A stretch of DNA of 23,285 bases from Chlamydiia bacterium (GCA_038257035.1 JBBSJT010000026.1:1-23285); one strand, 5' to 3'. Counted from the stretch's first letter, positions 2,826 to 23,285 are shown. A program made the numbers and translations. Notes: generated from the sequence alone by a model not told the origin.

Positions 2826-2844
2826 ACTAGACCTCACACAGTTA

Positions 2845-3661: not shown

Positions 3662-3839
3662 AAGAGGGATTTTAAAGGACAAAAAGGACACAAAGGACTA
3701 AAGGGACAATTCCACCGTCTAGAAAGTACTTCAGGGGCAAATTAGTTATGAAGTTTTTTACAAGACGGTGGAGATGTCCTTTTAGTCCTTTGTGTCCTTG
3801 CTGTCCTTTTTGTCCTTTTTGTCCTTTAAAATCCCTCTT
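3662..3839. repeat. Long palindromic element, family A (9-bp AAAGGACnn units)
   Basis: Left arm aagagggattttaaaggac...tccaccgtct has 4 units and pairs with agacggtgga...gtcctttaaaatccctctt, which has 6 units. Second copy at 19385-19507. Confidence 0.92.
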
Positions 3840-3866
3840 AGAACTTTCCCATATCGAGCGCCCTTC

Positions 3867-4661
3867 TCAAACAATCGTTGAAACACACCCACCATCGACG
3901 CGAAGGGCGGCACCATTTGTAGCAGAGGATGCCTCACTAGCAACATAGACAATCAAATTGGCAACTTCTACAGGTTCAATGAAACGTTTTATTAGTGAAG
4001 AGGGACGAGTCTCTTGGAAAAACTTTTCTTTTACATCGTCCAATGTGCTTTTTGTTTTTTCAGCAATATCAGTCATAAAATCATGAACCCCGGTTGTGAT
4101 TGTTGGGCCGACAAGAATACTGTTCGAAGTGACGTTTGTGCCTTTTGTCAATTCAGCTAACCCCCTTGAAACGGCAATTTGTGCAGTTTTCGTGACGCCG
4201 TAGTGAATCATATCCTTTGGAATCTGGACCCCCGACTCACTGCTAATAAAAATTAAACGGCCCCAGCCTTTTTTTAACATTTTTGGTAGGTAATATCGCG
4301 AAAGTCTAATACCGCTCATCACATTGACTTGCCAAATGTGCATCCAATCTTCATCCGAAATTTGCTCGAAAGGTTTTAATTCATAAAAACCCAAATTATT
4401 TATTAAAATATCACAGGAAGGCAATGCTTTAATAAGTGCGTCAACTCCATCAGCAGTTCCTAAATCTGCAGCTATTATTTTTAAAGAGGCTTTTGGAAAT
4501 TTTTTTCTTAAATCAACTGCAATTTTTTCAAGTTTAGTTTCATTCCTTCCATTAATCACAACCTCTGCCCCTTCCTCCAACAATAATTCTACAGTGGCAA
4601 ACCCTATGCCTTCACTTGAACCTGTTACAAGAGCTGTTTTACCGGAAAAATTAAATTTCAT
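3867..4661 (-). CDS. Short-chain dehydrogenase/reductase (SDR), YvrD-like
   Basis: TGSSEGIG Rossmann motif, NNLG, catalytic YGVTK (YxxxK), C-terminal VDGG. Confidence 0.93.
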   Translation of the reverse strand: MKFNFSGKTALVTGSSEGIGFATVELLLEEGAEVVINGRNETKLEKIAVDLRKKFPKASLKIIAADLGTADGVDALIKALPSCDILINNLGFYELKPFEQISDEDWMHIWQVNVMSGIRLSRYYLPKMLKKGWGRLIFISSESGVQIPKDMIHYGVTKTAQIAVSRGLAELTKGTNVTSNSILVGPTITTGVHDFMTDIAEKTKSTLDDVKEKFFQETRPSSLIKRFIEPVEVANLIVYVASEASSATNGAALRVDGGCVSTIV

Positions 4662-4795
4662 TGTTCACCTTCCTTTAAAAATTCGCTATAATTATTTCTC
4701 TATTTAATCCATAAAGTTATTAATTACAATCTTATTGTCTTTATAAAACGTGTCTGCTAAGATTTTTGAAAACTAACTTAAAATGAGGTTAACAT

Positions 4796-5143
4796 ATGAG
4801 TCCTATTTTTGCTTTAAATCTAGATAGCAACGGTACAGCTGTTAATATAATCAATATAGAAACTTCAAAGACGATTCCGGAACAGCAGGAAGCTGCAGCT
4901 TGTAAAACTCACAAAGAAGTGCTAGTTTTTTTAAAAAAATTACAATCCTCTGAAATAAAAGAATGCATTACGTTTCATCATGCGCATAACATAAATTATG
5001 AGGATCATGACGGAAATACAATTCCTAAAGGAAAAACGCATGAATGTTCGCTTAAAAACCAAATAAATTTTGTTAAATTAAAAATTTCAGAAGAGAATCA
5101 AGGAATCAGACCACTTGAAAATGATTGGTGCATTCTCCAGTAG
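4796..5143 (+). CDS. Hypothetical protein (115 aa)
   Basis: ATG with GAGG RBS; fills the gap between genes and is followed by a hairpin. Confidence 0.7.
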   Translation: MSPIFALNLDSNGTAVNIINIETSKTIPEQQEAAACKTHKEVLVFLKKLQSSEIKECITFHHAHNINYEDHDGNTIPKGKTHECSLKNQINFVKLKISEENQGIRPLENDWCILQ

Positions 5144-5149
5144 TAAAAA

Positions 5150-5185
5150 AATTCATTCAGGAGTGTTATCACTCCTGAATGAATT
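5150..5185. terminator. Intrinsic terminator between convergent genes
   Basis: Perfect 16-bp stem aattcattcaggagtg/cactcctgaatgaatt with a 4-nt loop; U-tract follows on the minus strand. Confidence 0.8.
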
Positions 5186-5190
5186 AAACA

Positions 5191-5712
5191 TTAGCTTAGA
5201 CTTGATGATGTAATATCATGTGCGCCTTCTTTTTTCAAGATGGCTTCAGCTCTTGTTATCTGCTCAGATGTATCAGCATGAACACTGATTAGAATGTTAC
5301 CTTCACGAAGCCCTTTTTCATATTTTTTGGCTTCAAACTCAGGAATACCTGATCCAACGAGTGCTCCGATTAGTAGGCCTATGCCTCCACCTAATCCAGA
5401 ACCGCTTAAAGCTGCAACAATAGGACCTGCAGCAATAAATGGACCAACTCCAGGGATTGCCAAAGCACCGAGGCCTGCCAATAATCCTAATGATCCACCT
5501 AAAATTCCGCCAGCTGTTCCACCGGCTGCTGCACCCTCAGAAGCTTTTGAGTGTTTTTCAACTCCAAGACTTCCTTTTTCTCTTTCGGATGCATGAAGAT
5601 CCGGAGAAAGAATCGAAATGTCTGCATTTGTAAATCCTGAAGATAATAATCTATCTACGATATGCTGAGCTTGTTCTTCATTATGGCATAAGCCAAAAAC
5701 TGCTTTTTTCAT
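5191..5712 (-). CDS. General stress protein 17M-like / glycine-zipper membrane protein
   Basis: N-terminal VFGL...A..L...GF...DISIL, long Gly/Ala hydrophobic core with AIPGVGPFIAAGP, C-terminal GIPEFEAKKYE...GNILISVH; AGGAG RBS. Confidence 0.85.
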   Translation of the reverse strand: MKKAVFGLCHNEEQAQHIVDRLLSSGFTNADISILSPDLHASEREKGSLGVEKHSKASEGAAAGGTAGGILGGSLGLLAGLGALAIPGVGPFIAAGPIVAALSGSGLGGGIGLLIGALVGSGIPEFEAKKYEKGLREGNILISVHADTSEQITRAEAILKKEGAHDITSSSLS

Positions 5713-5739
5713 ATAAACTCCTAAATTGGTTGGTTAATA

Positions 5740-6300
5740 TTATTTCTTAAGGATTTCAAGTTGATTATCAACTCTTACAACACCTTGGACATCACTAATT
5801 TTTCTTAAAACAGAATCTATTTCCTGCTGGTTTGCAACCGGCCCACGCAATACAACAACACCATTTATCGTGATGATTTTGATGTTTTGTGCATTCGTTG
5901 ACAAAGCATCATCGGCTACAACAGCTTTACGTATTTTTTGTGTGATTGTTCGATCAGCTTCACTTTCTGATTGATCGAGTGGAGTGATGGCTGCAGAATC
6001 GCGATCACGAACATTTTTCCCGGTATTATCATTATCAATACGCCCGTTGTAATCGTTACCTACACGGCGACCAGTTGTATCGTAATCAGCACGAGCATTG
6101 ACATCGCTATTTACACGACGACCAGTTGTATCGTAATCTGCACGAGCATTGACATCGCTATTTACACGACTGTTATTGACATGATCTACACGACCATTTT
6201 TATCATTATCCATGTGAGTTGATGAAGTGGTTGTTCTATCTTGAGAACTACAAGCTACCAATGTTAATGAAAGCATTACCATTGAAAAATATTTTATCAT
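5740..6300 (-). CDS. BON-domain (OsmY-like) lipoprotein
   Basis: Lipobox LVAC. C-terminal BON domain DRTITQKIRKAVVADDALSTNAQNIKIITINGVVVLRGPV...GVVRVDNQL. Confidence 0.9.
   Translation of the reverse strand: MIKYFSMVMLSLTLVACSSQDRTTTSSTHMDNDKNGRVDHVNNSRVNSDVNARADYDTTGRRVNSDVNARADYDTTGRRVGNDYNGRIDNDNTGKNVRDRDSAAITPLDQSESEADRTITQKIRKAVVADDALSTNAQNIKIITINGVVVLRGPVANQQEIDSVLRKISDVQGVVRVDNQLEILKK
6061..6170. repeat. In-frame 51-bp tandem repeat inside the BON gene
   Basis: 6061-6111 and 6112-6162 differ at 2 of 51 positions; encodes VNSDVNARADYDTTGRR twice. Confidence 0.95.
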
Positions 6301-6439
6301 AAAACCCCCTTGTTTTTATTAGCTACCTTAAATATAAACATCAAACATATAAAAATTAAAGTATACAAATACTTAAACTTTATAAATTTTTAACAATAGT
6401 TAGTTATTAAGTCAGATGTAAAAAATAGTTGAAAGTGTA

Positions 6440-6670
6440 CTAGAGTAAATCCTGGTCAGATAAATCACCCGCTTCTTTTCTCAATTTGGTTTCTTCAGGA
6501 CTTAAGAATTCTTCTTCTTCATAGTACTGATCATCCTCAGCATCACCTCTTTCTTCTTCAGTAGTCTGATAGGGCTTTTTAAGATGATCACTCGGACCTT
6601 TTTCTTCGTCGCGGTCAAAATTGACTTGTTTTGGATCGTCGGGATTGTCTTTCTTTTTCTTATGTGGCAT
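6440..6670 (-). CDS. Small acidic hydrophilic protein (76 aa, start revised to MPHKKK)
   Basis: GGAGGA RBS just upstream of the ATG at 6670; very D/E-rich and hydrophilin-like; sits in the stress cluster. Confidence 0.75.
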   Translation of the reverse strand: MPHKKKKDNPDDPKQVNFDRDEEKGPSDHLKKPYQTTEEERGDAEDDQYYEEEEFLSPEETKLRKEAGDLSDQDLL

Positions 6671-6859
6671 AAACTTCCTCCTTGAAACACGTCTATTTTG
6701 AGATATAGACCAGGACTTTGCAAATGTCAAGCTTGAATTTAAACTATAACATCAACCAATTTTTTTTTTACTATGGGGATAATAGCAGAATGACAAAAAA
6801 CAAAAGTTCTTAGGACAATAGGTTTTTAAGTCTGGAAGTAATTGAAAAAAAACAATAAA

Positions 6860-6900
6860 TTAAATTTCAATACCTACATTGTTTTAGGATTGAAATTTAA
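6860..6900. terminator. AT-rich hairpin downstream of the SDR gene, possible terminator
   Basis: ttaaatttcaat/attgaaatttaa 12-bp stem plus inner ccta/tagg. Confidence 0.35.
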
Positions 6901-6950
6901 ATTTTAAATGAGGGTTGACAATAGTACCTATCAATTAGATGACATGATTA

Positions 6951-7811
6951 CTAAGTATTAACAATTTCCCCTCCATTGGGATGCAATACTTGACCAGTCA
7001 TATAGGAAGAATTATCTGATGCTAAAAAAACATAACATGGTGAAACTTCCGACGGCTGACCCGGCCTTTTCATAGGTACATCAGATCCAAAAGTTTCAAC
7101 TTTTTGCTTTGGAAAAGTGGAGACTATTAAAGGTGTCCATATAGGTCCCGGCGCTACAGCATTCACGCGAATACCTTTATCAACAAGGGATAAGGCAAGG
7201 GATCTTGTAAAAGTAATGATTGCTCCTTTGGTTGAAGAATAGTCCAAAAGATTTTTACTTCCCCTGTAAGCTGTAACAGACGAAGAATTGATGATTGTAC
7301 CTTTAGTTTTTACTAAGTATGGCAAAGCTGCTTTGACCATGTAAAACATAGAGAAAATATTAGTGGAGAAAGTTTTTTGGAGTTGCTCTTTGGTAATATC
7401 TTCAATAGATTTTTGCGGATGTTGTTCTGCTGCGTTATTGACCAAAATATTTATTTTTTTAAATGTCTTAATGCTTTGTTTAATGACAGACCGGCAAAAT
7501 TTTTCGTCTCCAATATCACCTGAAATTAATAAGCAACGTCTGCCCTTTTCTTCTACCATTCTTTTTGTTTCTTTAGCATCATCGTTTTCTTTTAAGTAAA
7601 CAATTACGATATCTGCTCCTTCATTTGCAAAGTCAACTGCAACAGAGCGACCAATCCCACTATCTCCACCGGTAATTACTGCAACTTTATCAAGAAGTTG
7701 TGGTCCTGTTAACGTTTTTTCAACTTGTGGCAATGGTTTCATTTTTTTTTGAACACCTGGCGGATTTTGTGATTGTGCGGGTAATATTTTTTCAGGTTTT
7801 TTATATTTCAT
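6951..7811 (-). CDS. General-stress SDR oxidoreductase (YhdF/YdaD/YghA-like)
   Basis: N-terminal QxQxPPG extension, TGGDSGIG, NNAAEQH, YSSTK, VAPGPIWTPL, HPNGG; AGGAGG RBS. Confidence 0.93.
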   Translation of the reverse strand: MKYKKPEKILPAQSQNPPGVQKKMKPLPQVEKTLTGPQLLDKVAVITGGDSGIGRSVAVDFANEGADIVIVYLKENDDAKETKRMVEEKGRRCLLISGDIGDEKFCRSVIKQSIKTFKKINILVNNAAEQHPQKSIEDITKEQLQKTFSTNIFSMFYMVKAALPYLVKTKGTIINSSSVTAYRGSKNLLDYSSTKGAIITFTRSLALSLVDKGIRVNAVAPGPIWTPLIVSTFPKQKVETFGSDVPMKRPGQPSEVSPCYVFLASDNSSYMTGQVLHPNGGEIVNT

Positions 7812-7824
7812 ACACCTCCTAATA

Positions 7825-7855
7825 GAAACACCCCTACATGATGTAGGAGTGTTTC
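7825..7855. promoter_or_regulatory. Intercistronic hairpin between yciF and the SDR gene
   Basis: gaaacacccctacat-g-atgtaggagtgtttc, directly upstream of the SDR RBS on the minus strand. Confidence 0.55.
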
Positions 7856-7865
7856 AAGTCAATAT

Positions 7866-8396
7866 TTAGTTTCCTGAAACTGCTTCTTCGTTTATACCGT
7901 CAGTAAACATAGTTCCTTCGGCAATTTTTGTAAGCGCTTTATTAGCACCGCCTTCTTCATCTAAGGATTCTTGAAGAAGATCAACTATTTCGTCCTCTAA
8001 ATCTAAGTATGTTGCAAAGCTACGCAATGTGCCATAAGAAGCAATTTCGTAATGTTCAACCTTCTGAGCGCAACTAATAATAGCCGCATCTAAAGTAGCT
8101 GATTTTGTTTGACCTTCAAGCATTTCATCAGCTTCCTTGATAATCCCTTCCATCCCTTCGCAAAATTCCTCTTCGACGGGAAGACCTAATATTGAAAATA
8201 TTTTTTCTAGTCGCTTTACCTGATATTTTGTTTCTTTTAGATGGTTTGACAAACCGTCTTTTAGATCCTTAAATGAGGCTAGACTTATTAATTTAGGTAA
8301 CGATTCAACAATTTGATTTTCAGCACTATACATATCTTTAAGTTCAGTTAAGAACAAATCTTTGAGCGTTTTCATTTTTTTTGTTTTTGTAGCCAT
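7866..8396 (-). CDS. yciF: Ferritin-like DUF892 stress protein (YciF/YciE family); start revised to MATKTKK
   Basis: LKDMYSAENQ, HLKETKYQVKRL, CEGMEGII, AQKVEHYEIASYGTL, LDEE; GAGGAG RBS before the ATG at 8396. Confidence 0.9.
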   Translation of the reverse strand: MATKTKKMKTLKDLFLTELKDMYSAENQIVESLPKLISLASFKDLKDGLSNHLKETKYQVKRLEKIFSILGLPVEEEFCEGMEGIIKEADEMLEGQTKSATLDAAIISCAQKVEHYEIASYGTLRSFATYLDLEDEIVDLLQESLDEEGGANKALTKIAEGTMFTDGINEEAVSGN

Positions 8397-8747
8397 ACTT
8401 AACTCCTCTTTGGTATTAAATAAATTTTTTAGAATGTAAGCAATAAATCTATAGATTAGGTAATTAAACAAAGAACAAGGGGGTACAACTAAAAACAGTT
8501 ATTAACCCCTATAACATCACAATAGTTTATATTATTTTAAATAGATATAAATTTATTTAAATATTTTTAGTTAAAATTTAATTACCTACTTAAATAGCAT
8601 ATCCCATTCTCGCAGCAATAACACTTCTTTGTCAAAATTCCATTTGAAATAATATAAAGAAAAAATATTGAATAAAAAAAACTCGATTGATTATATGAAC
8701 GATGGAGGCAATGATATTTGCCAAAATTAAATATTAAGGAGTAAACA

Positions 8748-8964: not shown

Positions 8965-10161
8965 GTGTTACAAATAACTGCTTGCGCTTGTTCAATCCCC
9001 TGTTTCCCATCTTACAACATCAAAGAAATGAGCCTAGAAGAAAAAGTTGGCCAAATCATGATGGTTCATTTTCGTGGTGAAACCATTAACGATGAAGCTA
9101 AATCCTTAATCCAAGATATTAAGGTTGGAGGATTCATCTATTACAATTGGTCAAACGGATTAAGCTCCCCTAAACAAATTCAAACCCTAAGCATGGATCT
9201 TCAAGCTCTGGCCAGAATCCCACTTTTGATTGCCACCGATCAAGAAGGGGGAAGAGTTACAAGATTAAAAGATGGTTTTACCAAATTTCCGGGAAATGCT
9301 GCTTTGGGATTAACTGCTAATCCTATGCTGGCAATGGAGGCGGCAGTTGTTATGGGAGAAGAAATGCATGCCGTTGGTATTAATATGAATCTTGCACCGG
9401 TTGTAGATATCAATAGTAACATTAATAATCCGGTGATAGGTAATCGCGCATTTGGAGATTGTCCGAAAACCGTAGTTGATTTTGGTCTCCAAGCCTTAAA
9501 AGGTTTTAAAAAAGCCAATGTCATCACAACATTAAAACATTTCCCTGGTCATGGCGACACTGCTGAGGATTCACATGTATCTCTACCTATCAACAATAAA
9601 ACCATGCAACAGTTGGAAGAGATGGAATTGATTCCTTTTGCAACACTTGAATCAGATGCCATCATGACAGCACATATGCTCGTTCCTTCTTTTGACAAAG
9701 AAAATTGTTCAACCCTTTCTTTCAAAACCCTTAATTTTTTAAGACAGAATTTGGGTTTTAAAGGTGTTATTATCAGTGATTCTCTGGTGATGGAAGGTGT
9801 TTTAAAAAAATGTCTTAACATTGAAAATACTTCCCTGCAAGCATTGCAAGCCGGATGTGATATTCTCCTCTTAGGAGGGCATCAATTGAATGGAAATTCA
9901 AGCCTTGAACTTAAATTTAAAGACATTCAACGTATACATAAAAGCATCGTACAATCCGTAAAGAATGACAAAAATTTGGAATTAAGGCTAAATGGTGCAG
10001 TGGAAAGAATTCTTACACTCAAAGAAAAGTATTTATGCATTCAACATTATCAAAAAAGACAAGATTTAGGGCTCTTCGTCAATATCTTAGAGCATCAGGA
10101 GCTTGCCCTAAAAATCGAAATCCTCTCCAATAAATCCTCAATAGGTGCATACACCGGTTGA
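8965..10161 (+). CDS. nagZ: Beta-N-acetylhexosaminidase, GH3 (NagZ)
   Basis: DQEGGRV, LAPVVD, NagZ signature KHFPGHGxxxxDSH, IMTAH, GVIISDSLVM. Start uncertain (GTG 8965 or ATG 9028). Confidence 0.9.
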   Translation: MLQITACACSIPCFPSYNIKEMSLEEKVGQIMMVHFRGETINDEAKSLIQDIKVGGFIYYNWSNGLSSPKQIQTLSMDLQALARIPLLIATDQEGGRVTRLKDGFTKFPGNAALGLTANPMLAMEAAVVMGEEMHAVGINMNLAPVVDINSNINNPVIGNRAFGDCPKTVVDFGLQALKGFKKANVITTLKHFPGHGDTAEDSHVSLPINNKTMQQLEEMELIPFATLESDAIMTAHMLVPSFDKENCSTLSFKTLNFLRQNLGFKGVIISDSLVMEGVLKKCLNIENTSLQALQAGCDILLLGGHQLNGNSSLELKFKDIQRIHKSIVQSVKNDKNLELRLNGAVERILTLKEKYLCIQHYQKRQDLGLFVNILEHQELALKIEILSNKSSIGAYTG

Positions 10162-10228
10162 ACTTCAAAGTGATAAATTTTTTAAAAAATTAAGAGTATG
10201 CTTCTAAGAGACTTATTTAAACGTCTAT

Positions 10229-10401
10229 GATTTTTTCAACGCAGAGACGCAGAGACGCGGAGACGCAGAGAAGCGCGCCTAAGCGCGAAATTAGACAAAT
10301 TAAATTCTTTTCTAAGCCACGAAAAAACGATTTCTTTTTCTTATTCTTTTCGCGCTTTAGCGCGCTTCTCTGCGTCTCTGAGTCTCTGCGTTGAAAAAAT
10401 C
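10229..10401. repeat. Long palindromic element, family B (8-bp CGCAGAGA units)
   Basis: gattttttcaacgcagagac...aagcgcgaaa (10229-10290) pairs with 10348-10401; the left arm has one extra 8-bp unit. Confidence 0.93.
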
Positions 10402-10439
10402 TGAAACTTTTTACTTTCAGGCAGTACCAGCATATACAT

Positions 10440-12602: not shown

Positions 12603-12712
12603 CTGATTCCGATGGTTTTCGAAGGTTGATATTTTATAGAAATCTATTTTGCACTTTTCTTCATAATAGTGCAAAGTCATGTTATCAAAAAAATGGAAGT
12701 GGAGCTCTTTTC

Positions 12713-13741
12713 TTGAAAATAGAACTTTTAAACTTGGCTGAATTTAATATCCCACTTAAGAGCAATCAACTGCGAAGAGGTGTACTAATTAACCTTTTTG
12801 ATGACAAAGGGGCTAACAGTTGGGCAGAGATTTCCCCACTCCCTAAATGGAGCCTTGAAACATTAGAAGACTCTATATTGCAATTAAAAGAAAAACAATA
12901 TGAAATTTTTAACATTAACTGGACAACTGATAACTTCTTTACTGAAATTTCAAAACTAGAATTATTGCCTTCAGTTACATTTGGACTTGAATCTGCTCTT
13001 TTATCGCTTTTAAATCCTCTGCAAAATCATACGGTAAAAACTAGTGCTCTACTCATGGGAACCTACGAAGAAATTTTGGAACAAGCAAAAATAAAAAAAC
13101 TCCAAGGATTTACTTCAGCAAAATTAAAGGTTTCCAATCTAACATTTGATGAGGCTTTTCTTGTAATCCATCAATTGAAGGATAATTTTTCTTTAAGAAT
13201 AGATGTCAATCGTGCATGGACAACTTCAGAATCAATTGCTTTTTTTGCACAATTCCCGTTGAATTCCTTTGATTATGTTGAAGAACCTTTTCAAAACCCA
13301 AATGATTTAGCAAAATTTTTACATCCTTTAGCAATAGATGAATCTTATCCAACAGATCTTGGACTAAGTCAGCTAGAGCTATTGCCTACATTAAAGGCGA
13401 TCATTTATAAGCCAACAATTCAAGGTGGGATACTGGGTTGTTTGGCATTACAGGATTTTGCAAAAAAACGAGGCCTTGAACTTGTTCTAAGTAGTAGTTT
13501 TGAAAGTGATGTAGGTCTTAGCTATATAGGGTCCATGGCACATCGGCTTTTACTCGATGCCCCAATTGGGATCGGCACTTATGATTATTTGAGTAAGACT
13601 CTTTGCGATAATGCTTTGCAATTTAGAGGGCCGGTTGTGTACATACCGGGTGTTGTTCTACCAAAGAGATTCACCACTAAGGGGGACCTTTTTACCGCGA
13701 AGGACGCGAAGAAAGACGCGAAGGCTCGCGAAGAAGCTTAG
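12713..13741 (+). CDS. menC: o-Succinylbenzoate synthase (enolase superfamily); start revised to TTG 12713
   Basis: EISPLP, KLKV, LRIDVNRAW, YVEEP, AIDES, KPTIQG, SSSFESDVGL; GGAG 8 nt before the TTG at 12713. Confidence 0.88.
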   Translation: MKIELLNLAEFNIPLKSNQLRRGVLINLFDDKGANSWAEISPLPKWSLETLEDSILQLKEKQYEIFNINWTTDNFFTEISKLELLPSVTFGLESALLSLLNPLQNHTVKTSALLMGTYEEILEQAKIKKLQGFTSAKLKVSNLTFDEAFLVIHQLKDNFSLRIDVNRAWTTSESIAFFAQFPLNSFDYVEEPFQNPNDLAKFLHPLAIDESYPTDLGLSQLELLPTLKAIIYKPTIQGGILGCLALQDFAKKRGLELVLSSSFESDVGLSYIGSMAHRLLLDAPIGIGTYDYLSKTLCDNALQFRGPVVYIPGVVLPKRFTTKGDLFTAKDAKKDAKAREEA

Positions 13742-13902
13742 CTGAAGCGCGAAAGACAAGGGAAGGTTGTTGATCTTTGCAAAGGCTGATGTGTTCTTCA
13801 AGTCGTTCTGCCCTCTTCCTTATCGCGCTTAAGCTAAGCTTCTTCGCGTGCCTTCGCGTCTTTCTTCGCGTCCTTCGCGGTAAAAAGGTCCTCCTTAGTG
13901 GT
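13673..13902. repeat. Long palindromic element, family C (CGCGAAG units), overlapping the menC 3' end
   Basis: 80-bp arms 13673-13752 and 13823-13902, complementary at 77 of 80 positions. Confidence 0.95.
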
Positions 13903-14001
13903 AGTGTCTTGGCGGAAAATCTCTTTATTGATTTTTATTGATTAAATACTTATGCAAGATTTATGATGCATCCCGTCACTACTACCTAAAAAGAAGGAAA
14001 T

Positions 14002-14232: not shown

Positions 14233-14329
14233 CTGAATTAAAGACCATCAGTTTTAATTGTAATTAATAATCTATTATATGTTAAAATTAAATTAGATTG
14301 CAATAAACAATTAATAATTGGTGGTTACT

Positions 14330-16753
14330 ATGGAGCCGGTAAATTTTAATAATGCTAAACCAGTCTCTAATGTTGAAAAAAAAGGTGAATCTGCTGAAAT
14401 AAAAAAAGCAGATCAGCTTGGTAAAAAGACACTTCATACTGAATCAAAAAAGAGTGTAAGTCAGATCCAAGGTGTCATATCAAGGAAAAAATTAAGAGCA
14501 TCGTCAAAAGAGGCATCATTATCAGCCTCTCATGTCGAAAAGGTAAAAATTAACCTTTCCACTAAACTTAAAAACCTTGACCCTCCCTCTATCGAAGAAC
14601 GAAAAAATAATGCCTCTAGTCAATTAAATAGTCCTGTGTCTGCCGGCAAAGAGAAGCTTCTTAAAAGCATCATCAAAGATCCTGAAAACACAGCATCAGA
14701 GATATTGGACTCTGATCGTTTGATAATTGGTGAAAAAATCATTCCAAGATCCCAGTTTTATACCAAAGACAAAGAGCTAATGAGCGAAAAATCTCTATAT
14801 CGCTTTATTTCAGACAGCATAGAAGCTTATGTCAAAGAAGCTTATACAAACGAAGAAATTTATTTTGATACTGATGAAATTATAAATTCCGCTCGCCAAG
14901 AATTTGCAAATGAAATTCCTTTAAAATACCCGAATACCATTTCCTACCCTTGGGCAAATGCAGGAAAAATTAACGAAACAAAATTTGATTTTGAAACAGA
15001 TGCTATCTCAAAAAATAGCGATATATTTGTCGTGTCAAAAACAGTGAAAAAAATATTTAAAAATTTAGATAATCCTCAAGAAAAGCCACGCCTCATCATT
15101 TACGAATCACATGTGAAACATCATTTAAAAACAGGGGATGTGGAACTTATTTACACTCTATATGCTGATGGAAAAAAAGAAACTTGGGATCCGGCAAAAA
15201 ATGCTGAAGTTCAAGTGATTGCTCTTTTATTAAAAAATTCAACATTTAGAACATTTAACGATTATGCAGATGTTTTAAAAAACGATCCTCAGTGGAAAAA
15301 TAAGGTAAATGAAGAAATAAAAATGTTAACAAAGGAACAAAAAGAGACTTTAGCCGATTTAGATTTATCAAATTTTAATGATTATGACCGCCAAGTGTTT
15401 CGTGAAATTTTACAAATGGTAAGAAATGAGGGTATTGAAAATGATAATTTAGAATCTAACATCCAAAAATTATTTACGAAAATTATCAATGTTGAAGAAA
15501 AGGAACCTTATTTTAAATATTTAGGGGGCGGTGCTGTAAACAAAGTCTACAGTGTGGATGATGGCACAAACCAGGGTGTTTTTAAGCCTGATCCCTCTGA
15601 AATCGATTTAGTCACTCAAATTAAAGAAAAAAATTTTGGTACAGCAAAAGCCTCAGGAATTCCGGAAGGTGATGATGCGCATTTAACAGCTCGCTCAGTC
15701 GCAAGTTTTGCTTTGGACAAATTACTCTATGGCGATGATAATCCAATTGGTGTTAAAACCGAATATGTGATTGTGAATGGCAAGCGTGGCATTTTAATGG
15801 AAACAGCAAAAGGAGGAAGCCCAGAGCCTCCTATAATGGTAACAGAAGAGCTAAATTTGACTTTTTTAAAAAAAATGAATGCAGCTCATCTTTTAGAAAA
15901 TGGAAAATTAGTTCCCGATGGAGAAAATCAACTTAAAAAGCTATTAGGTGTAGAAGAAATTATACATCAAGATAACAAAATTTTTGTTACTATCCCTGAA
16001 TTTCATATTAAAAAATCAATTGAAGTTAAAATTGACGAAAGTAGCTTTGAATACAAACACATAGAATTGTTTATCAGTAATAAAAAAGTTTTAAGTCCAA
16101 ATGAAGCCAATTTTATACGCTCGCAATTGCCGAATTTTAAAAAAATTAGAATCAGTAGACGTACGGACAATAAACTTGAAATTTTTGTGACAAAAGCCCA
16201 TACTCCAATTAAACTTGAAACCCCTGTGACTGTAGAGGGTTTATTAAAAATGCAGGTATTTGATTGGATTTCAGGGCAAGTAGATCGCCACCCCGGCAAT
16301 TATTATATAGATCCTAAAACATCAAAAGTTCAAGCAATCGATAACGATTGCTCGTTTGGAGTCAATGCCGTACCAAAAGATGTCGATGTACGCTTACAAA
16401 AACCTTTAGGCTTTGTGGTACCCAACAATGGATCTTTAATGCTCAGAATGCCAAATGTGGTCACAAAAGAGATTAAGGAAAACATTAACAATCTTTATTC
16501 TAATCAACAGCAATTAAAAGAAACTCTTAGACAATACATTTCAAATGCTGAAATTGAAGCTACAATAGAGCGTCTCCAAAAACTTGTTGATCATATAAAC
16601 AGCAAAGATTTTTTAGTTGTCGATAATGCAGAGGCTCTATTAAGCTCTGATGCCATGAAAGCCCAAGATTCAAATAACAGTTACTATTTTAGAGAAAGGG
16701 ATCGTTATCGAACCACATCCTGGAACGACCTTAGAATTTATAAAGCTATTTAA
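14330..16753 (+). CDS. Atypical kinase (PI3/PI4-kinase-like fold) with long N-terminal extension; candidate secreted effector
   Basis: Gly loop LGGGAVNKVY, GVFKP, RSVASFALDKLL, catalytic DRHPGN, metal-binding IDND; S/K-rich low-complexity N-terminus; GGTGG before the ATG at 14330. Confidence 0.8.
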   Translation: MEPVNFNNAKPVSNVEKKGESAEIKKADQLGKKTLHTESKKSVSQIQGVISRKKLRASSKEASLSASHVEKVKINLSTKLKNLDPPSIEERKNNASSQLNSPVSAGKEKLLKSIIKDPENTASEILDSDRLIIGEKIIPRSQFYTKDKELMSEKSLYRFISDSIEAYVKEAYTNEEIYFDTDEIINSARQEFANEIPLKYPNTISYPWANAGKINETKFDFETDAISKNSDIFVVSKTVKKIFKNLDNPQEKPRLIIYESHVKHHLKTGDVELIYTLYADGKKETWDPAKNAEVQVIALLLKNSTFRTFNDYADVLKNDPQWKNKVNEEIKMLTKEQKETLADLDLSNFNDYDRQVFREILQMVRNEGIENDNLESNIQKLFTKIINVEEKEPYFKYLGGGAVNKVYSVDDGTNQGVFKPDPSEIDLVTQIKEKNFGTAKASGIPEGDDAHLTARSVASFALDKLLYGDDNPIGVKTEYVIVNGKRGILMETAKGGSPEPPIMVTEELNLTFLKKMNAAHLLENGKLVPDGENQLKKLLGVEEIIHQDNKIFVTIPEFHIKKSIEVKIDESSFEYKHIELFISNKKVLSPNEANFIRSQLPNFKKIRISRRTDNKLEIFVTKAHTPIKLETPVTVEGLLKMQVFDWISGQVDRHPGNYYIDPKTSKVQAIDNDCSFGVNAVPKDVDVRLQKPLGFVVPNNGSLMLRMPNVVTKEIKENINNLYSNQQQLKETLRQYISNAEIEATIERLQKLVDHINSKDFLVVDNAEALLSSDAMKAQDSNNSYYFRERDRYRTTSWNDLRIYKAI

Positions 16754-16773
16754 CACATTAACAGGAAGATATT

Positions 16774-17346
16774 ATGAACCCACTCAATCCACAATCTTCT
16801 CTTGATGCCTTTGAAATTGCCGAGAATTATTTCAAGCGTGAAAATCTTGATTTTCCTTATGTCGCAAAAGCTGATGAAGATAAGTTTGTAAAAATCAGCG
16901 AGGATATCTTTGGAACTCTCGATTCTTTGCCAGCACATTTATATAACATTGAGGCCTATTTAAAAGAGGCCTTATCTTCCAATCAAGATTATGTGCTTTT
17001 TGGAATGGATAAACTTTCCACATTAGGGATGCATTACTATACTGTGAAAGAGCATGTGGCTATTTTTATTCAATTAAATGCGGACCCAAGACTTGAAGAC
17101 CTGCAAGACAGGATTAATGGCATATTTTACGGCGTTTCTTTAATTTTGGAAAAGATTGAGACTGCAAAAAACAATAATCTTATTCCAAAAGATAGCCGTC
17201 TATTTATTTTTGATAGCGATTTTTATGGTCACGGATGGGGATGGATTAAAGGCTGTCCAGGAGAAATTGACAAGAATTTATGGCATGTTGAAAATCCAAT
17301 CCTCATGTCTGCCTTAAACGACATCCCCCTCCCAAAAGAGAGCTAG
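16774..17346 (+). CDS. Acidic hypothetical protein (190 aa), probably co-transcribed with the kinase
   Basis: Starts 20 nt after the kinase stop; AGGAAG RBS. Confidence 0.85.
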   Translation: MNPLNPQSSLDAFEIAENYFKRENLDFPYVAKADEDKFVKISEDIFGTLDSLPAHLYNIEAYLKEALSSNQDYVLFGMDKLSTLGMHYYTVKEHVAIFIQLNADPRLEDLQDRINGIFYGVSLILEKIETAKNNNLIPKDSRLFIFDSDFYGHGWGWIKGCPGEIDKNLWHVENPILMSALNDIPLPKES

Positions 17347-17447
17347 CACTCAGTAATTTTTTACATGTGAGTTCTTAAGAACAATATATAATGCTACTTG
17401 AAAATGAAAAAGTTAAATCCCATTAAACCTATTAATTTAGCACCTTC

Positions 17448-17605
17448 GATTTTTTTTCAGGATATTCAGGATCGCTCCGCTTCGCTTCGCGGCAGGATCA
17501 GGCAGGATAATATCAATCCTTAGTATATCCGTAAGGTTGATATTATCCTGCCTGATCCTGCCGCGAAGCGAAGCGGAGCGATCCTGAATATCCTGAAAAA
17601 AAATC
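17448..17605. repeat. Long palindromic element, family D (CAGGAT units), perfect 69-bp stem
   Basis: 17448-17516 is the exact reverse complement of 17537-17605; 20-nt loop. Confidence 0.97.
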
Positions 17606-17699
17606 ATAAAAGTTATAGAAATGTAACCCTCTCAGCCCATTCAATTGTTTCTCTCTTGATCTCTCTTGCCCTCTGTTGTTAAGAAACCCACAATACTTG

Positions 17700-19337
17700 T
17701 TAGTTGCAAATAGGTTGTAAGGATGTTGATGATGTAGGTGAGGAAGCGTTTTTGAGTGCGGCCTTTAATTCTCGTTCAATATAATAAGCTTCCAAATCAC
17801 GGCCTTGGCCTTTTAAGCTAAGAAAGAGACCAGATAAAAGCCGTCCATTTCTTTGAAGATCTTTTAAGCCTTCATTAAATACAACTTCTGCCTCTTTAAA
17901 TTGCTTCTCTTTTAATAGAGCAAACCCAAGCGATAATCTTGCAGGCATAAAATGCGGAGGCGGCTCATCATAGGTGAGCTTATCTTCTGCAGCTACTGCT
18001 TTTTTCAAAGAATCGATGGCTTCCAATGGAAAGCCTGCCACATTGCTTATTGCGGCATCTAATAATAAATTGGTTAAACCAATGACATTTGCCGCAGGAT
18101 TATTTGAGACCTGTTCCCCTGTAAATTGACTTCTTACCTGAAGCATCCTTTCTTTTTCCTGTTTAGCAGAGCTGAGATTTCCGATATGCGCATAAGCCAT
18201 AGCACGTGCATAGTGCAAATAGGCAACTGCCGGCAGATAATCTGTTTCTAATTTAAAATTAAGAATCTCATTCCATTTATTAAAATAAAGGTACACTTCT
18301 AAAGGAGCAATCAAGTGATAGGCCATGGTTTGCATCGCATCGGCATCTTGTTTTATAAATTCTACAATTTCGAAAGCGGTGTTAATAGCATTACTCTCAT
18401 CTTCCATCAGCATATAAACCCGTTTAAGAACACTTAAATTGTGTGTAAGATAGTGCATCGGATATCTTCCACTTTTTAACCCAAGCTCCTCAATATAAAG
18501 AACATCTTGTGCAATCGCTCTTTTATTAGCCTTTAAAGCTCTTTCATAATCACCGACAATTAAAAATATATGGCTTGGCATATGCAATAAATGTCCTGAT
18601 TCTACAAGAAGATTTTCCAAACGATAGGCTGACATTAATGCCCTTTCAGGGTATTTGGATTCTTCCATTGCATGAATATAATAATGATTGGCCCCGATAT
18701 GATCCGGATTGCGCATTAAAACAAATTCAAGGGCATCTATAGCATCATATGTTCCGGGGTTTGCTTTTCCATCTTTTGTCCACCATTTCCATGGATCTAA
18801 ATCCAAAATACTTTCTGCATATAGAGTTCTGGCATCAAGGTCTTCAGGGTATTTTGCACTAAGCTTTTGCATCGCATTTTTGTAGGAATAACGTAAGGGA
18901 ATTAAGTCGGCTTCTATATCGTTTGTATAGCGTGTAGCTAAAGCTTGAATGTAATCTTGTTCCATTGGGGTGGCATTTTTTTTTAGTTGCAATGCTCTTT
19001 GTATATAATTATAAGCTCTTAGCTCATTTTCGGGTGTAACATCGGCATTGATATTTTGCCCAATAGCCAAAGCCATTCCCCAATAGGCCATTGCAAGGGA
19101 TGGGTCTAAATTGGCAGCATTTTCAAAAGATCTAAACGCGATATCATGGTTAAAGGCGAAAATGTAAGTGAGTCCGCGATCAAAGTTTTTTTGGGCTTCT
19201 TCATTATTTGTAGAAACCGGATGATAAATCTCATTCATGGGTGGAAATAGCTTAAATGCATTTGCGGGAATTTCTGCTTGAAGACCGTTTGCAATAAGAC
19301 ATAAAGAGACTTGAAACATCAGCTTGAAATTACCCAT
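17700..19337 (-). CDS. Secreted TPR-like helical repeat protein with conserved His motifs
   Basis: Signal-peptide-like N-terminus (LQA-EI); FNH..A...F..A..LDP..AMAYWG, HIGANHYYIH, GHLLHMPSHI; GAGGA RBS. Confidence 0.85.
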   Translation of the reverse strand: MGNFKLMFQVSLCLIANGLQAEIPANAFKLFPPMNEIYHPVSTNNEEAQKNFDRGLTYIFAFNHDIAFRSFENAANLDPSLAMAYWGMALAIGQNINADVTPENELRAYNYIQRALQLKKNATPMEQDYIQALATRYTNDIEADLIPLRYSYKNAMQKLSAKYPEDLDARTLYAESILDLDPWKWWTKDGKANPGTYDAIDALEFVLMRNPDHIGANHYYIHAMEESKYPERALMSAYRLENLLVESGHLLHMPSHIFLIVGDYERALKANKRAIAQDVLYIEELGLKSGRYPMHYLTHNLSVLKRVYMLMEDESNAINTAFEIVEFIKQDADAMQTMAYHLIAPLEVYLYFNKWNEILNFKLETDYLPAVAYLHYARAMAYAHIGNLSSAKQEKERMLQVRSQFTGEQVSNNPAANVIGLTNLLLDAAISNVAGFPLEAIDSLKKAVAAEDKLTYDEPPPHFMPARLSLGFALLKEKQFKEAEVVFNEGLKDLQRNGRLLSGLFLSLKGQGRDLEAYYIERELKAALKNASSPTSSTSLQPICN

Positions 19338-19384
19338 ATACGTTCCTCTTGAATTTCATCAATAATATTATTTTTAAGTTTATA

Positions 19385-19507
19385 AGGATTTTAAAGGACT
19401 AAAAGGACTACATTGACAAATCCAACGCCTTGAAGATACTTTCAAGACGGTTAAGTTGCCCTTTTAGTCCTTTTTTCCTTTATGTACTTTTTGTCCTTTA
19501 AAATCCT
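19385..19507. repeat. Long palindromic element, family A, degenerate second copy
   Basis: aggattttaaaggac.../...gtcctttaaaatcct; collinear with 3662-3839 but with a shorter loop. Confidence 0.88.
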
Positions 19508-19516
19508 CTAAAAAGT

Positions 19517-20287
19517 TTATGACAACTCATTGGCACGAACATAAGCGGCGAGGAAGGTGGCCTTAATGCCTTCGTTGACCCCTAGTTCTTCATACTTGTC
19601 CAGACCTGCCCGAGTGGTGCCGTTCGGTGTTGCGATTTGTTTGATTAACTCATCCGTGTCCTTGCCGCTTTTTTCCATCAAATGGACACTCCCCTTCACC
19701 ATTTGCAAAACTAGTTGTGTAGATTCTTGGTTTGTAAAACCCAATTCAACCCCTGCATCAATCATGGATTGGATCATGGAAAAAACAAAACCGGGCCCTG
19801 ATCCTGCAAGAGAGGTGAAGGCGTTCATCTTTTTTTCTTCAAGAAAATGCATTTTTCCAAGCGGTTTAATAAGCTCTACTAATTGTTCATTTTCAAAAGA
19901 ATTTAAAGGCTTATCAATAGATACCCCAAGAAGCCCCTCCCCATAAATCAAGGGAAGATTAGGCATCATGCGCACAATGGTTTGGTATGGAATTTTTTCT
20001 CTTAATTTTTCAATTGAAACTCCAGTCAGAATGCTGATCAGTATTTTATTTTCACAGGTTGTATTTTGAAATAGCTGGCTTGCTTCATCAAAGCTTTGAG
20101 GTTTAACAGCTAAAATAATGATATCGGATTGATTAATAGCCGCCTTTGCATCTTGGCAAGGCAGACCAAATTCTGACAAGGCGTTGCTTTTTTCAATAAA
20201 ATGATCGTAAAGAAAAAGTGTGTGACCTTTTAGACGTGTGGCAAAAGCTTTGCCCATATTGCCGCAGCCAACAATCGTAATCTTCAT
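19517..20287 (-). CDS. proC: Pyrroline-5-carboxylate reductase
   Basis: GCGNMG, LAVKPQ, VRMMPN, GSGPGF, ATPNGTT. Confidence 0.95.
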   Translation of the reverse strand: MKITIVGCGNMGKAFATRLKGHTLFLYDHFIEKSNALSEFGLPCQDAKAAINQSDIIILAVKPQSFDEASQLFQNTTCENKILISILTGVSIEKLREKIPYQTIVRMMPNLPLIYGEGLLGVSIDKPLNSFENEQLVELIKPLGKMHFLEEKKMNAFTSLAGSGPGFVFSMIQSMIDAGVELGFTNQESTQLVLQMVKGSVHLMEKSGKDTDELIKQIATPNGTTRAGLDKYEELGVNEGIKATFLAAYVRANELS

Positions 20288-20335
20288 ACACCCTCTTCTC
20301 TTTTTACTTAAATCGATTTGTAATTAACCTTACTG

Positions 20336-20455
20336 ATTTTTTTAACGCAAAGACGCAAAGGCGCAAAGAATTTAAAATTAAAGTCTTTGCCATCCTAAAA
20401 GTAATTTTATCTTTGCGCCTTTGCGTCTTTTGCAGCTTCTTTGCGTTAAAAAAAT
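20336..20455. repeat. Long palindromic element, family B variant (CGCAAAGA units)
   Basis: atttttttaacgcaaagacgcaaaggcgcaaaga pairs with tctttgcgcctttgcgtc...tctttgcgttaaaaaaat; lies between proA and proC. Confidence 0.9.
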
Positions 20456-20503
20456 TCTAATGTACTTCCAAAACAATCTTTGATACCTAGATGCACATCC
20501 TTG

Positions 20504-21760
20504 CTAACTTCTAGAAGCGTAATCGGCGCTGACTACCCATTTGTAGGATGTTAGCTCAGTTAAGCCCATAGGTCCTCGTGCATGGAGTTTTTGTGTGCTA
20601 ACAGCAATTTCTGCTCCTAAACCAAATTGTCCGCCATCGGTAAAACGGGTGGAAGCATTTACATACACTGCAGCAGAATCTACCGAGTTAACAAAGTGCT
20701 GTGCATTTTGTTGATTATCAGTAAGAATACCATCGCTATGCGCCGTACTGTATTTTCTAATGTGTGCAATTGCTAATTCCAAATCTTTAACAACTTTGAT
20801 GTTAAGCACAAGACTTAACCATTCGGTATCAAAATCTTTGGCCTTTGCAAGCTCATAGACTGCATCGCATTGATTTTTTTTTGCAATAGCATAGCTTTTT
20901 TTATCTAACTTGAAAGTAACTTTGAATTTTGCCAAAAGATTCATGATTTGAGGAATAAAAATTGAGGCATTTTTTTCATGAACGAGCAAAGTATCAAGGG
21001 CATTACACACTGTTGGACGCTGCACTTTTGCATTAAGAATCAGATCCATACTTTTCTCTAAATTGGCAAACTCATCGACAAATAGATGACAAACTCCCAT
21101 TCCACCTGACATCACAGGTATTCTGCTATTTTCAAGACACAAGCGATGTAAATTCGCTCCTCCTCTTGGAATGATCAAGTCGATGGTGTCTTTTAGCCGA
21201 ACCATTTTCTTTATTTCTGCACGATCTCGGCTTTTAATAAGTTGAACGGCAAAAACCGGCAATTTAGCTTTTAGAAGGGCCTCTTGAATCACTTCTGTCA
21301 ATAGAGTATTCGTTCGGAGTGCCTCAGAGCCTCCTCGTAAAAGAGCGCAATTTCCTGATTTGATTGAAAGGGCGGCACAATCTATGGTGACATTTGGACG
21401 AGATTCATAAATAATTCCCAAAACGCCAATAGGAGTTCGTATTTTTTTGATCTTTAATTTTAAATGAGTGCGCTCTTCAAACACAACACCTACAGGATTT
21501 TCTAACTTGATGATTTCTTCGATGCTTGAGCAAATAGCTTCCACACTGTTTTGGATTGACAAACGCTCAATCATCGGTTGGCTTAAAAAGGCTGCCTCAG
21601 CTTCTTGAATATCTTGTAAATTAGCATTTAAAATTTCGTTTTTTCGGCTTTTTAACAGTTCTACAATAAATTGAAGGGCTTGGTTTTTTTGATCGGTTGT
21701 GGCAACAGCCATTTCAAACGTTGCACTTTTAGCATTTTTTGCCAATTCTTTTGTTTCCAT
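20504..21760 (-). CDS. proA: Gamma-glutamyl phosphate reductase
   Basis: PIGVLGIIYESRPNVT, LRGGSEA, IPRGG, VCNALDTLL, NASTRFTDGGQFGLGAE, KLHARGPMGL. Confidence 0.97.
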   Translation of the reverse strand: METKELAKNAKSATFEMAVATTDQKNQALQFIVELLKSRKNEILNANLQDIQEAEAAFLSQPMIERLSIQNSVEAICSSIEEIIKLENPVGVVFEERTHLKLKIKKIRTPIGVLGIIYESRPNVTIDCAALSIKSGNCALLRGGSEALRTNTLLTEVIQEALLKAKLPVFAVQLIKSRDRAEIKKMVRLKDTIDLIIPRGGANLHRLCLENSRIPVMSGGMGVCHLFVDEFANLEKSMDLILNAKVQRPTVCNALDTLLVHEKNASIFIPQIMNLLAKFKVTFKLDKKSYAIAKKNQCDAVYELAKAKDFDTEWLSLVLNIKVVKDLELAIAHIRKYSTAHSDGILTDNQQNAQHFVNSVDSAAVYVNASTRFTDGGQFGLGAEIAVSTQKLHARGPMGLTELTSYKWVVSADYASRS

Positions 21761-22536
21761 TATCCCTTCTTAAATTTTGGTAAGAATGATGTTCCGATCT
21801 TTTTTCCATCGCAAATATCTATAAGAACATTTGGAATTGCAGATGATGCAATCACCGTTAAAGTTCCTGAATCTGTTGCAATTTTTGCAGCCTCAATTTT
21901 TGTGATCATGCCACCCGTTCCACAATGGGTTGAGGGGCCTTTTGCAAGAGAATAAATAGAATCATCAATGCAAGTCACAAGCGGAATTAAAACGGCATCA
22001 GGGTCGAGCCTTGGATCTGCCGTATATAGCCCTTGCTGATCTGTTAGTAAAATCAGTAGGTCTGAGCCTATTAAATCAACAACCAACGCTGCAAGATTAT
22101 CATTATCTCCGACTCGAATTTCTTCTGTGGAAACAGAATCATTTTCATTAATGATTGGAACTATTTTATGTTGAAGCAAACAATTTAACGTCTCTTTTGC
22201 GTTAAGACGTCCTTTCTCATCGGATAAATCAGCTTTGGTAAGAAGTATCTGCCCGACATGAACTTCATGGAGCAAAAATAATTTGGACCATATTTGCATA
22301 AGCTCGACCTGGCCAGTAGCAGCGAACATTTGTTTAAGGGGTAGTGATTGATCAACCGGCGTGAGTCCTAGTAATTCCCTTCCTGCAGCCATTGCCCCTG
22401 ATGAAACCAAAATGACTTCATGCCCAAGAGATTGAAGGAAAACAAGTTGCCTTGTTAGCTCAAGCATATATTTCTGAACAAGTTTTTTACCACCTTGCGT
22501 TAAGGTGCTTGTGCCAACTTTTAAAACAACTCTCAT
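21760..22536 (-). CDS. proB: Glutamate 5-kinase lacking the C-terminal PUA domain; start revised to MRVVLKVGT
   Basis: VLKVGTS, VSSGA, PIINEND, GDNDNLAA, GTGGMITK; TAATG overlap with proA and ATGA overlap with the upstream gene. Confidence 0.95.
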   Translation of the reverse strand: MRVVLKVGTSTLTQGGKKLVQKYMLELTRQLVFLQSLGHEVILVSSGAMAAGRELLGLTPVDQSLPLKQMFAATGQVELMQIWSKLFLLHEVHVGQILLTKADLSDEKGRLNAKETLNCLLQHKIVPIINENDSVSTEEIRVGDNDNLAALVVDLIGSDLLILLTDQQGLYTADPRLDPDAVLIPLVTCIDDSIYSLAKGPSTHCGTGGMITKIEAAKIATDSGTLTVIASSAIPNVLIDICDGKKIGTSFLPKFKKG

Positions 22537-23081
22537 TTTTCTACATATCCAAAAAATTTGCAAACATTTGCAGGTTCAAGCCTGAAATCCTTATGTATGG
22601 CAAAATATTCATGTTCCCTGACAAGATGTAAAGTAAATTCAGTAAAAGATAGAGACTGATCTGTTTTTTTATGAACGATCCGGTAAGTCATCTCTTTAAA
22701 TTCCCTCTTGCAGAATGGGCATGTCACATCCGACTGCTCCTCTATTCTTTCGTCAAGTTCTTTTTCAAGAGAAGTAGATAATTTAGGCACTTGATTATTA
22801 TTTTTCAGCACATAATTATACCAATCTTCATGATTTTCAATCTTTTCATCAACCAGTTGCTTTTTTACTATATGATGAAGCTTTTCTCCCAATTCTTTCG
22901 GGGTCGTATTAAACTTTTGCAAATACTCAGCATCTTCGCGAGCTGTTTTTCTTTTCAAATGCCACTCTGTTGCCACTGTGCTTTCTGAATATTTCTTTAA
23001 GGAATCGCTTCTCTTGTAAAAGTTTAAGCAAGCTTCATCATTCAACTGCAAAAAACTTCCTATGGCAGAATAATCGTTCAT
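22533..23081 (-). CDS. Hypothetical protein with CxxC...HxxxxH motif (182 aa), translationally coupled to proB
   Basis: AAGGGGA RBS; CPFC and HLVREH; its stop overlaps the proB start. Confidence 0.8.
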   Translation of the reverse strand: MNDYSAIGSFLQLNDEACLNFYKRSDSLKKYSESTVATEWHLKRKTAREDAEYLQKFNTTPKELGEKLHHIVKKQLVDEKIENHEDWYNYVLKNNNQVPKLSTSLEKELDERIEEQSDVTCPFCKREFKEMTYRIVHKKTDQSLSFTEFTLHLVREHEYFAIHKDFRLEPANVCKFFGYVEK

Positions 23082-23239
23082 AAATCCCCTTAAATTCTAT
23101 GATTTAGCCTAGTTTAGGAAAAAAAAGATTTAAGTAGTAGGGAATTCTAGACATTGCTCACCCTAAAGAAAGCTAAACATAATATTTCGATGCAACTTGA
23201 AAGTAAAAATTTAAACCCTCTAAAATCTATAACATCTTC

Positions 23240-23285
23240 GATTTTTTTTACAGGATATGCAGGATCGCTAACGCGGCAGGATCGC
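23240..23285. repeat. Left arm of a second family D element, truncated by the window edge
   Basis: gat(t)n-acaggatatgcaggatcgct...cgcggcaggatc matches the arm starting at 17448; the upstream flank is also homologous. Confidence 0.85.

Follow-up and report, generated by a model that had tools for sequence, protein, structure and literature searches.

The described systems closest to the elements treated here are repetitive extragenic palindromic (REP) sequences, GTAG- or CGTC-tagged in the accessible part of PMC3733652, and their inverted doublets, the REPINs, with their REP-associated tyrosine transposases (RAYTs). According to the accessible parts of PMC3116915 and PMC3337134, REPINs are extragenic, form long hairpins, occur in hundreds of copies and several families per genome, accompany a small gene with matching repeats and have asymmetric ends. 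The same features are seen in a system of palindromic elements of a Chlamydiia bacterium, seven of which lie in the 23,285-nt stretch of DNA analysed here, hereafter the window (GCA_038257035.1 JBBSJT010000026.1:1-23285; contig C26 of a 2.37-Mb, 210-contig, 96 %-complete assembly). In contrast to REPINs, the arms consist of tandem 7-10-nt units rather than REPs that are short and self-palindromic, a PD-(D/E)XK protein of the GxxExxY family or a four-helix-bundle protein takes the place of the HUH Y1 transposase as partner, and the gene is enclosed by a single arm pair; the flanking tracts are T..A here and A..T in common-configuration GI REPINs (PMC3337134, same part). The elements work like REPINs, yet depart from them in two defining features, i.e. 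the flanking of a Y1 gene and self-palindromic, tagged REP arms. Our data support the hairpins being real, mobile, gene-less copies of small GxxExxY or four-helix-bundle cassettes, and hairpins and cassettes together point to a kind of bacterial selfish DNA for which we found no description, its mover being a proposal.

Likenesses to other systems are more partial. The heptamer repeat pairs of Xanthomonas (GGGAATC; accessible part of PMC4692102), with 70 inverted pairs in Xcc, and the TAACTGA arrays of Beggiatoaceae (accessible part of PMC4679880), about which it was speculated that they are of mobile origin or bind a protein, are likewise intergenic short tandem units near gene ends; both differ from our elements in unit sequence, and those parts name neither a gene-carrying form nor a partner family. 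The open reading frame (ORF)-bearing intervening sequences of 23S ribosomal RNA (PF05635; accessible part of PMC3936711) also hold a four-helix-bundle gene inside a long stem, whereas the elements described here lie between protein genes, are mostly gene-less and in most families go with a nuclease gene; the window has no ribosomal RNA match, and its copies all lie between protein genes. No paper tying such arms to either protein family was found in a literature search that ended short of supplements and subscription journals, where a description may exist.

The original prediction, made from the window alone, placed seven elements there, all of which were found at those positions, and assigned them to four families with separate units. 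The units of families B and C, though, are variants of one core, CRCRRAG, which also unites them with a further family, F. The six complete elements fold into single long stems; compared with 60 dinucleotide shuffles of each, their RNA z-scores range from -6.5 to -27.6. A strict inverted-repeat scan gave four matches in the window, with the two weaker elements, at 19385 and 20336, below the score cut, and none in each of 20 shuffled windows. As predicted, the stem has on both strands a T-tract before it and an A-tract after it; these tracts are base-paired to one another and make up the base of the stem, and by inspection the arms are direct tandem units behind the T-tract and an A(A/C)C head. 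The number of units often differs between the two arms, as had been noted (4/6, 4/3, 2/3 and 3/4 in four of six elements, equal in C and D), while the purine richness described for the left arms does not extend to family D (0.43 purines). Two of the boundaries proved wider than proposed: the element at 10229 lies inside a TA-flanked shell, which provides the stop codon of nagZ, and the insertion in menC runs to about 13926; at the left of the family-A element at 3662, degenerate units extend outward. The elements do not have the layout of intrinsic terminators, i.e. a short GC stem followed by a U-tract, since what comes after the stem is an A-tract, whichever strand is read, and a terminator scan of the window gave 17 matches with no whole element among them, only sub-hairpins at 13717, 13846 and 19426. 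In an Rfam search of the window no element exceeded the gathering score, the only matches being sub-threshold microRNA-like and small nucleolar RNA ones, and promoter-like sites were at chance level.

The suggestion that the hairpins are empty forms of cassettes carrying GxxExxY or four-helix-bundle genes was borne out, the former being found in this genome, in relatives and in other phyla, and the latter in relatives. On a contig other than the window, family-C arms enclose an intact GxxExxY gene (P0001, C7:925-1589), and a second such gene (P0002, contig C17) is preceded by a decayed B2 arm and followed by a complete B2 element. Arms with the B1 unit (CGCAGAGA) enclose a GxxExxY gene in L033, and D arms do so in the genome G005 (L025), where they have a 21-nt stretch in common with the last element of the window; GxxExxY proteins within D-like arms form a separate, fully supported clade. 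Family-A arms enclose four-helix-bundle plus suffix genes in G020 and G019 (the proteins of L091 and L110 score 27-29 bits for TIGR02436, cut-off 24, and 77-79 bits for TIGR04258, cut-off 40); in several relatives, four-helix genes of the plain kind lie within G-type arms. Nor do the families form a single system with a single partner: families A and G go with four-helix-bundle genes, and B, C, D and F with GxxExxY.

The association is not confined to chlamydiae. Among 77 GxxExxY loci (80 from many bacterial phyla and two archaea, minus three with short flanks), 48 reached an inverted-repeat score of at least 16 between their own flanks, compared with 23/385 swapped and 0/385 shuffled flanks; 18 of 24 chlamydial loci did so too (four dropped), at least two of these through other repeats. 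In a direct motif test, oriented CRCRRAG doublets enclosed 54 of 101 GxxExxY loci. In the cassettes a purine arm lies ahead of the start and its complement just past the stop: median distances in 58 cassettes are 8.5 nt from the stop to the beginning of the right arm and 24.5 nt from the end of the left arm to the aligned gene start. Cassettes of G035 in which intact arms surround just the gene's 3' half show a deletion route to empty copies. At two loci of that genome (L104, L105), three GxxExxY cassettes with internal deletions, each bounded by arms, follow one another in tandem, at L104 at least inside a remnant of the insertion sequence (IS) IS5. No remains of the C7 GxxExxY gene are present in the empty C copies.

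Evidence for mobility comes from a sister organism (L237 and L238, near-identical metagenome contigs counted as one), 87-90 % identical to the window, in which the presence/absence variation expected of mobile elements was found at two orthologous loci, menC and proA-proC. In the sister, menC ends normally and lacks the family-C element; here, the final five codons of the native gene have been displaced together with its stop, and the reading frame closes within the family-C arm. Where the window carries a B2 hairpin between proA and proC, the sister carries one of family E within the remnant of a shell, and in seven other relatives with the two genes linked all seven spacers are gaps of 7-30 nt with no insert. 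The family-A element at 19385 is absent after proC in the sister, and other tandem-unit repeats directly follow proC in 3 of 16 relatives. The sister lacks the whole 5.2-kb block 14258-19518, with its D and A hairpins; both organisms have the D element at 23240. An 811-aa ORF within this block (14318-16753) has a weak PI3/PI4-kinase-like match, below the cut-off. Two genomes of the same genus, at 64-73 % identity, are too far removed for an alignment of junctions; no arms were present at three loci examined in them, and contigs of the DNA run gave no joint deleting a whole element, the joints seen deriving from other copies.

Empty copies are themselves copied: a central segment is common to 23 of 83 C copies, whose flanks, on inspection, are unrelated, and central segments are common to 16 + 9 of 29 D copies. 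The common C segment could be a further nested element; it is AT-rich with a small inner hairpin, and the loops of certain B1 and B2 copies contain something similar. Nesting in an element of another family is seen six times, in four cases no more than 8 nt from the centre of the outer one. Target duplications were not found: direct repeats at the menC insertion do not exceed 3 nt, and there is no excess of direct repeats at the flanks of the elements. An inverted copy of nine host bases at menC suggested an inverted target duplication instead, which was rejected as a rule (9/85 in family C against 7 % across elements), and copy-specific matching of the two arms was slight only.

Throughout the assembly, an inverted-repeat scan gave 367 matches; of the 349 no longer than 460 nt, 237 belong to tandem-unit families (C 84, D 49, E 40, B2 23, B1 18, A 16, F 4 and G 3), 97 belong to other REP-like palindrome families and 15 are unassigned. 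A head-anchored count over the 2.37 Mb gave 622 arms and 214 pairs, and seven families of paired copies. Ten family-C elements seemingly inside genes were discarded as insertions into proteins, the ORFs arising from the stop-poor element itself. All six complete window copies lie within about 100 nt of a stop codon, but only the C element overlaps one. In counts based on a crude ORF caller, an element is present in 66 of 245 gaps between convergent genes, in 86 of 1174 co-directional gaps and in 22 of 279 divergent ones; the 3'-end position is thus a bias and not a rule. D-type sequence forms 52 of the 420 contig ends, and the shortest contig has 1526 nt; short cassettes between repeats could be missing from the assembly. 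One family-A hairpin (G000 C4:32336-33828) carries an element labelled IS3-like by inspection in its loop.

How such copies may arise is best considered together with the GxxExxY protein. P0001 and P0002 score 138-141 bits against curated cut-offs of 35 (TIGR04256) and 22 (PF13366). All 108 GxxExxY proteins compared have the catalytic E, D and ExK, and of the Q and Y that follow, the Q is kept in 105 and the Y in 107; a QxxxY motif is typical of RecB/Cas4-type nucleases. The structure model of P0001 is confident (predicted local distance difference test, 91.6), and the folds that it matches best are those of restriction-endonuclease-like nucleases, Cas4, AddAB, lambda exonuclease and Hjc among them; a Foldseek search with the model gave no match at E≤0.001, and no solved relative was found by sequence. 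By these models, both proteins are PD-(D/E)XK nucleases with intact residues and fold, whose activity is predicted. For PF13366, the accessible part of PMC3424549 gives the function as 'Unknown' and reports many horizontal transfers.

Our preferred reading, which we put at a little under an even chance, is that the hairpins are non-autonomous and are copied in trans by the GxxExxY nuclease together with host repair. Tandem-unit arms surround a gene of either kind, in the pairing of families given above, and internal deletion, as seen in a relative, removes the gene and leaves both arms. The gene-less copies arrive at new sites, where a GxxExxY nuclease acting in trans might cut at or near a unit-like motif or an extruded hairpin, with host recombination-repair copying the donor element into the break. 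Such cutting and repair-copying would account for concentric nesting, for sites at which one family has taken the place of another, and for the absence of target duplications. A minority is amplified further as passengers of TA-flanked shells or IS5; the T/A tracts would serve to close the stem rather than as terminator tails, and copies would gather after stop codons mainly through tolerance there. Homing endonucleases and other PD-(D/E)XK nucleases of mobile elements also cut and are then copied by host repair, and to this extent resemble the route proposed; our system differs in lacking introns and inteins, in having many empty followers and in showing no one target site that is conserved. 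More tentatively still, GxxExxY may be the mobilising enzyme of an undescribed kind of mobile DNA, i.e. a PD-(D/E)XK protein of about 125 aa that would read the tandem units, cut unit-like targets and drive the copying of its cassette and hundreds of empty hairpins, with four-helix cassettes of the same layout possibly taking the same route.

The distribution over genomes is consistent with a role of the nuclease. A full-length GxxExxY match (E≤1e-30) was found in 23 of 41 genomes, all with 11-305 CRCRRAG doublet hits; of the 18 genomes without one, three have 11-46 hits and fifteen have at most 3, with kin genomes not independent and many of the hits in G023 and G035 possibly being cassette arms. 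With one genome from each of 16 different families, at least 11 hits were seen in 6/6 genomes with and 0/10 without full-length GxxExxY, the threshold of 10 hits having been set after viewing the data. The D pattern occurs in 18 genomes, all with some full GxxExxY gene, and the A pattern in 9 of 41, with a suffix-type four-helix gene in six of these nine and in 5 of the 32 others. The only four-helix-bundle gene of the present assembly (G000 C166) is on a short contig, next to genes of Bacteroidota-like appearance, and is possibly a contaminant.

Several observations weigh against this reading. Y1 genes also co-occur with the repeats (22/27 vs 4/14 genomes, and 5/8 vs 1/8 across families), so part of the GxxExxY signal may reflect a general tolerance of mobile DNA, although the Y1 link is the weaker one. 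The cognate pairing of repeat family and gene is loose: a D-clade gene is present in only 4 of 10 D-rich genomes, and the present assembly, despite its 36 A and 135 D arms, has neither a four-helix-suffix gene nor a D-clade GxxExxY gene. Within the CRCRRAG class, unit variants track the protein tree only weakly (38 changes vs 47 shuffled), on a quick tree that is poorly resolved there. All fold Z-scores are below 8, i.e. middling (up to 7.9); the 125-aa nuclease has no evident strand-transfer function, and the activity of any GxxExxY protein is a prediction. The four-helix proteins, which share the cassette layout, are not known to have a catalytic site. A head-like motif in the same orientation lies 26-75 nt outside 103 of 199 C arms (4 in the opposite orientation, 9 in shuffled sequence), which speaks for the reading, but it is found on both sides of 24 elements, one side of 40 and neither side of 22; because the two sides are independent, these motifs may be eroded older arms and not targets. 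None of 80 viral loci chosen by their repeats (the first 80 of at least 141, with a positive control) has GxxExxY within 700 nt. Finally, 96 of the 622 arms adjoin the end of a TA-shell, and 67 matches in G035 travel within IS5 where examined (14 regions fetched); self-mobility of these 67 was rejected in favour of IS5 hitchhiking.

The 80 viral loci comprise 26 empty pairs, 50 solo arms and four longer arrangements. No GxxExxY gene was confirmed in viral contigs (queries P0001 and alignment), which also lack the family-C pattern; none was found in INPHARED phages, and eight plasmid records have one. Viral contigs L249 and L293 have a solo CACAGAG arm directly ahead of a start codon and in-frame copies in an ORF labelled terminase-like by inspection, and in L324 two unit variants are nested concentrically.

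[quoted passage not shown] We regard this as unlikely, though it deserves serious weight. The shell, which we take to be of IS630 type, resembles TA-targeting MITEs of that type in its TA flanks and terminal repeats of ~25 nt; the genome has 102 shell ends, 85 of them preceded by TA, three of the seven window elements touch one, and the cargo comprises B1, B2, D and an unrelated hairpin family, several B2 shells being near-identical. In G035, GxxExxY cassettes lie at an IS5 end, and one copy in G004 lies within a 24-bp terminal repeat. The hairpins, however, are only cargo of the shell, and most copies, among them nearly all of A, C and F, are without it: shell ends adjoin 60/135 D, 13/42 B1, 11/72 B2 and 8/79 E arms, but only 4/200 C, 0/36 A and 0/58 F arms. 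The menC insertion has no shell, and the direct repeats of at most 3 nt flanking its empty site differ from the target duplications of MITEs; a search for the IS630-type DDE_3 domain (PF13358; other DDE families not searched) gave no match in the 96 %-complete assembly, and the tight co-occurrence with GxxExxY would be left unexplained.

Quite improbable in our judgement is that the elements are RNA structures kept by host selection, the arms of a cassette pairing 5' with 3' to hide the start region and limit a toxic nuclease, and the empty copies stabilising messenger RNA 3' ends or serving as RNase III sites. The very stable folds, the spacing of the arms from start and stop in the 58 cassettes, the 3.5-fold enrichment in convergent gaps and the position of 61 of 83 co-directional copies closer to the upstream stop would suit such roles. 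Yet the sites are not conserved, being empty or swapped in the sister and vacant in all seven other proA-proC spacers, 22 copies lie between divergent genes, and the explanation provides no route of spreading. It could be combined with copying by nuclease and repair.

Slightly less probable again is movement in trans by RAYT-like Y1 transposases, as in REPINs, with GxxExxY and four-helix genes as captured cargo. Besides the co-occurrence of Y1 genes with the repeats, the doublet-hairpin layout and the asymmetric menC tail resemble REPINs (accessible part of PMC3116915), and the genome has nine Y1 matches, several inside their own palindromes. None of 36 Y1/RAYT loci, including seven of this genome, has any of the tested arm patterns within 300-400 nt, however; in G031 (99 % complete, six contigs), which has a GxxExxY gene and 34 hits, no Y1 gene was matched, five genomes with Y1 have at most 3 hits, and the units are not self-palindromic REPs. 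Six RAYT-like Y1 loci of this assembly (on C29, C105, C119, C7, C25 and C68) each lie in a palindrome family of their own, three of them broken. Very improbable, lastly, is retro-mobility, with hairpin RNAs reverse-transcribed in trans and the four-helix protein as an Avd-like cofactor: Avd, a cofactor of the reverse transcriptase of diversity-generating retroelements, is described as similar to S23 proteins (accessible part of 10.1101/2023.10.23.563531) and four-helix genes lie inside A- and G-type arms, but neither an RVT_1 match nor a four-helix gene of suffix type was found in the assembly, and GxxExxY is the partner of the most numerous families.

The features of the window are collected in Table 1.

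Table 1. Elements, shells and host gene in the window
Feature	Coordinates	Strand	Remarks
Family A (AAAGGAC units) empty hairpin	3662..3839	.	27 nt past stop of short-chain dehydrogenase/reductase (SDR) gene
TA-flanked shell	10152..10432	.	~25-nt terminal inverted repeats; contains B1 hairpin
Family B1 (CGCAGAGA units) empty hairpin	10229..10401	.	between convergent genes
Host menC-like gene	12626..13741	+	o-succinylbenzoate synthase model matches; sister comparison
Family C (CGCGAAG units) insertion	13673..13926	.	palindrome 13673-13902 and unpaired right tail of 21-24 nt
Decayed left end of TA-shell, before D hairpin	17386..17447 (start approximate)	+	
Family D (CAGGAT units) empty hairpin	17448..17605	.	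69-bp perfect stem; between convergent genes
Family A empty hairpin	19385..19507	.	10 nt past proC stop
Family B2 (CGCAAAG units) empty hairpin	20335..20455	.	proA-proC spacer
Left end of TA-shell before last D arm	23185..23239	+	sister has it too
Family D hairpin, left arm	23240..23285	+	cut by contig end; common to sister

Other repeats and genes of the window were also recorded. Palindromic repeats lie at 640-725 and 6855-6960, the former resembling the GGGGTCAGG family. Positions 1-3468 hold five tandem paralogous genes of ~200 aa on the minus strand; the one scanned, 2845-3468, had no NCBIfam or Pfam match. A partial copy of a REP-like family, members of which enclose the Y1 gene on C105, lies at 2735-2835, and 2780-2824 matches the Rfam motif Acido-Lenti-1 over its gathering score, which suggests that this motif is a REP-type repeat.

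Whatever moves them, these elements shape the genomes that carry them, as seen from the hundreds of arms per chlamydial genome, the rewritten end of menC and the turnover between sister species. PF13366 and an orphan four-helix family gain a sequence context and candidate DNA substrates, so that their function can be tested with short oligonucleotides. Should the GxxExxY nuclease turn out to move the elements, it would rank with the smallest known mobilising enzymes, and the tandem-unit repeats long noted in bacteria would have a cause.

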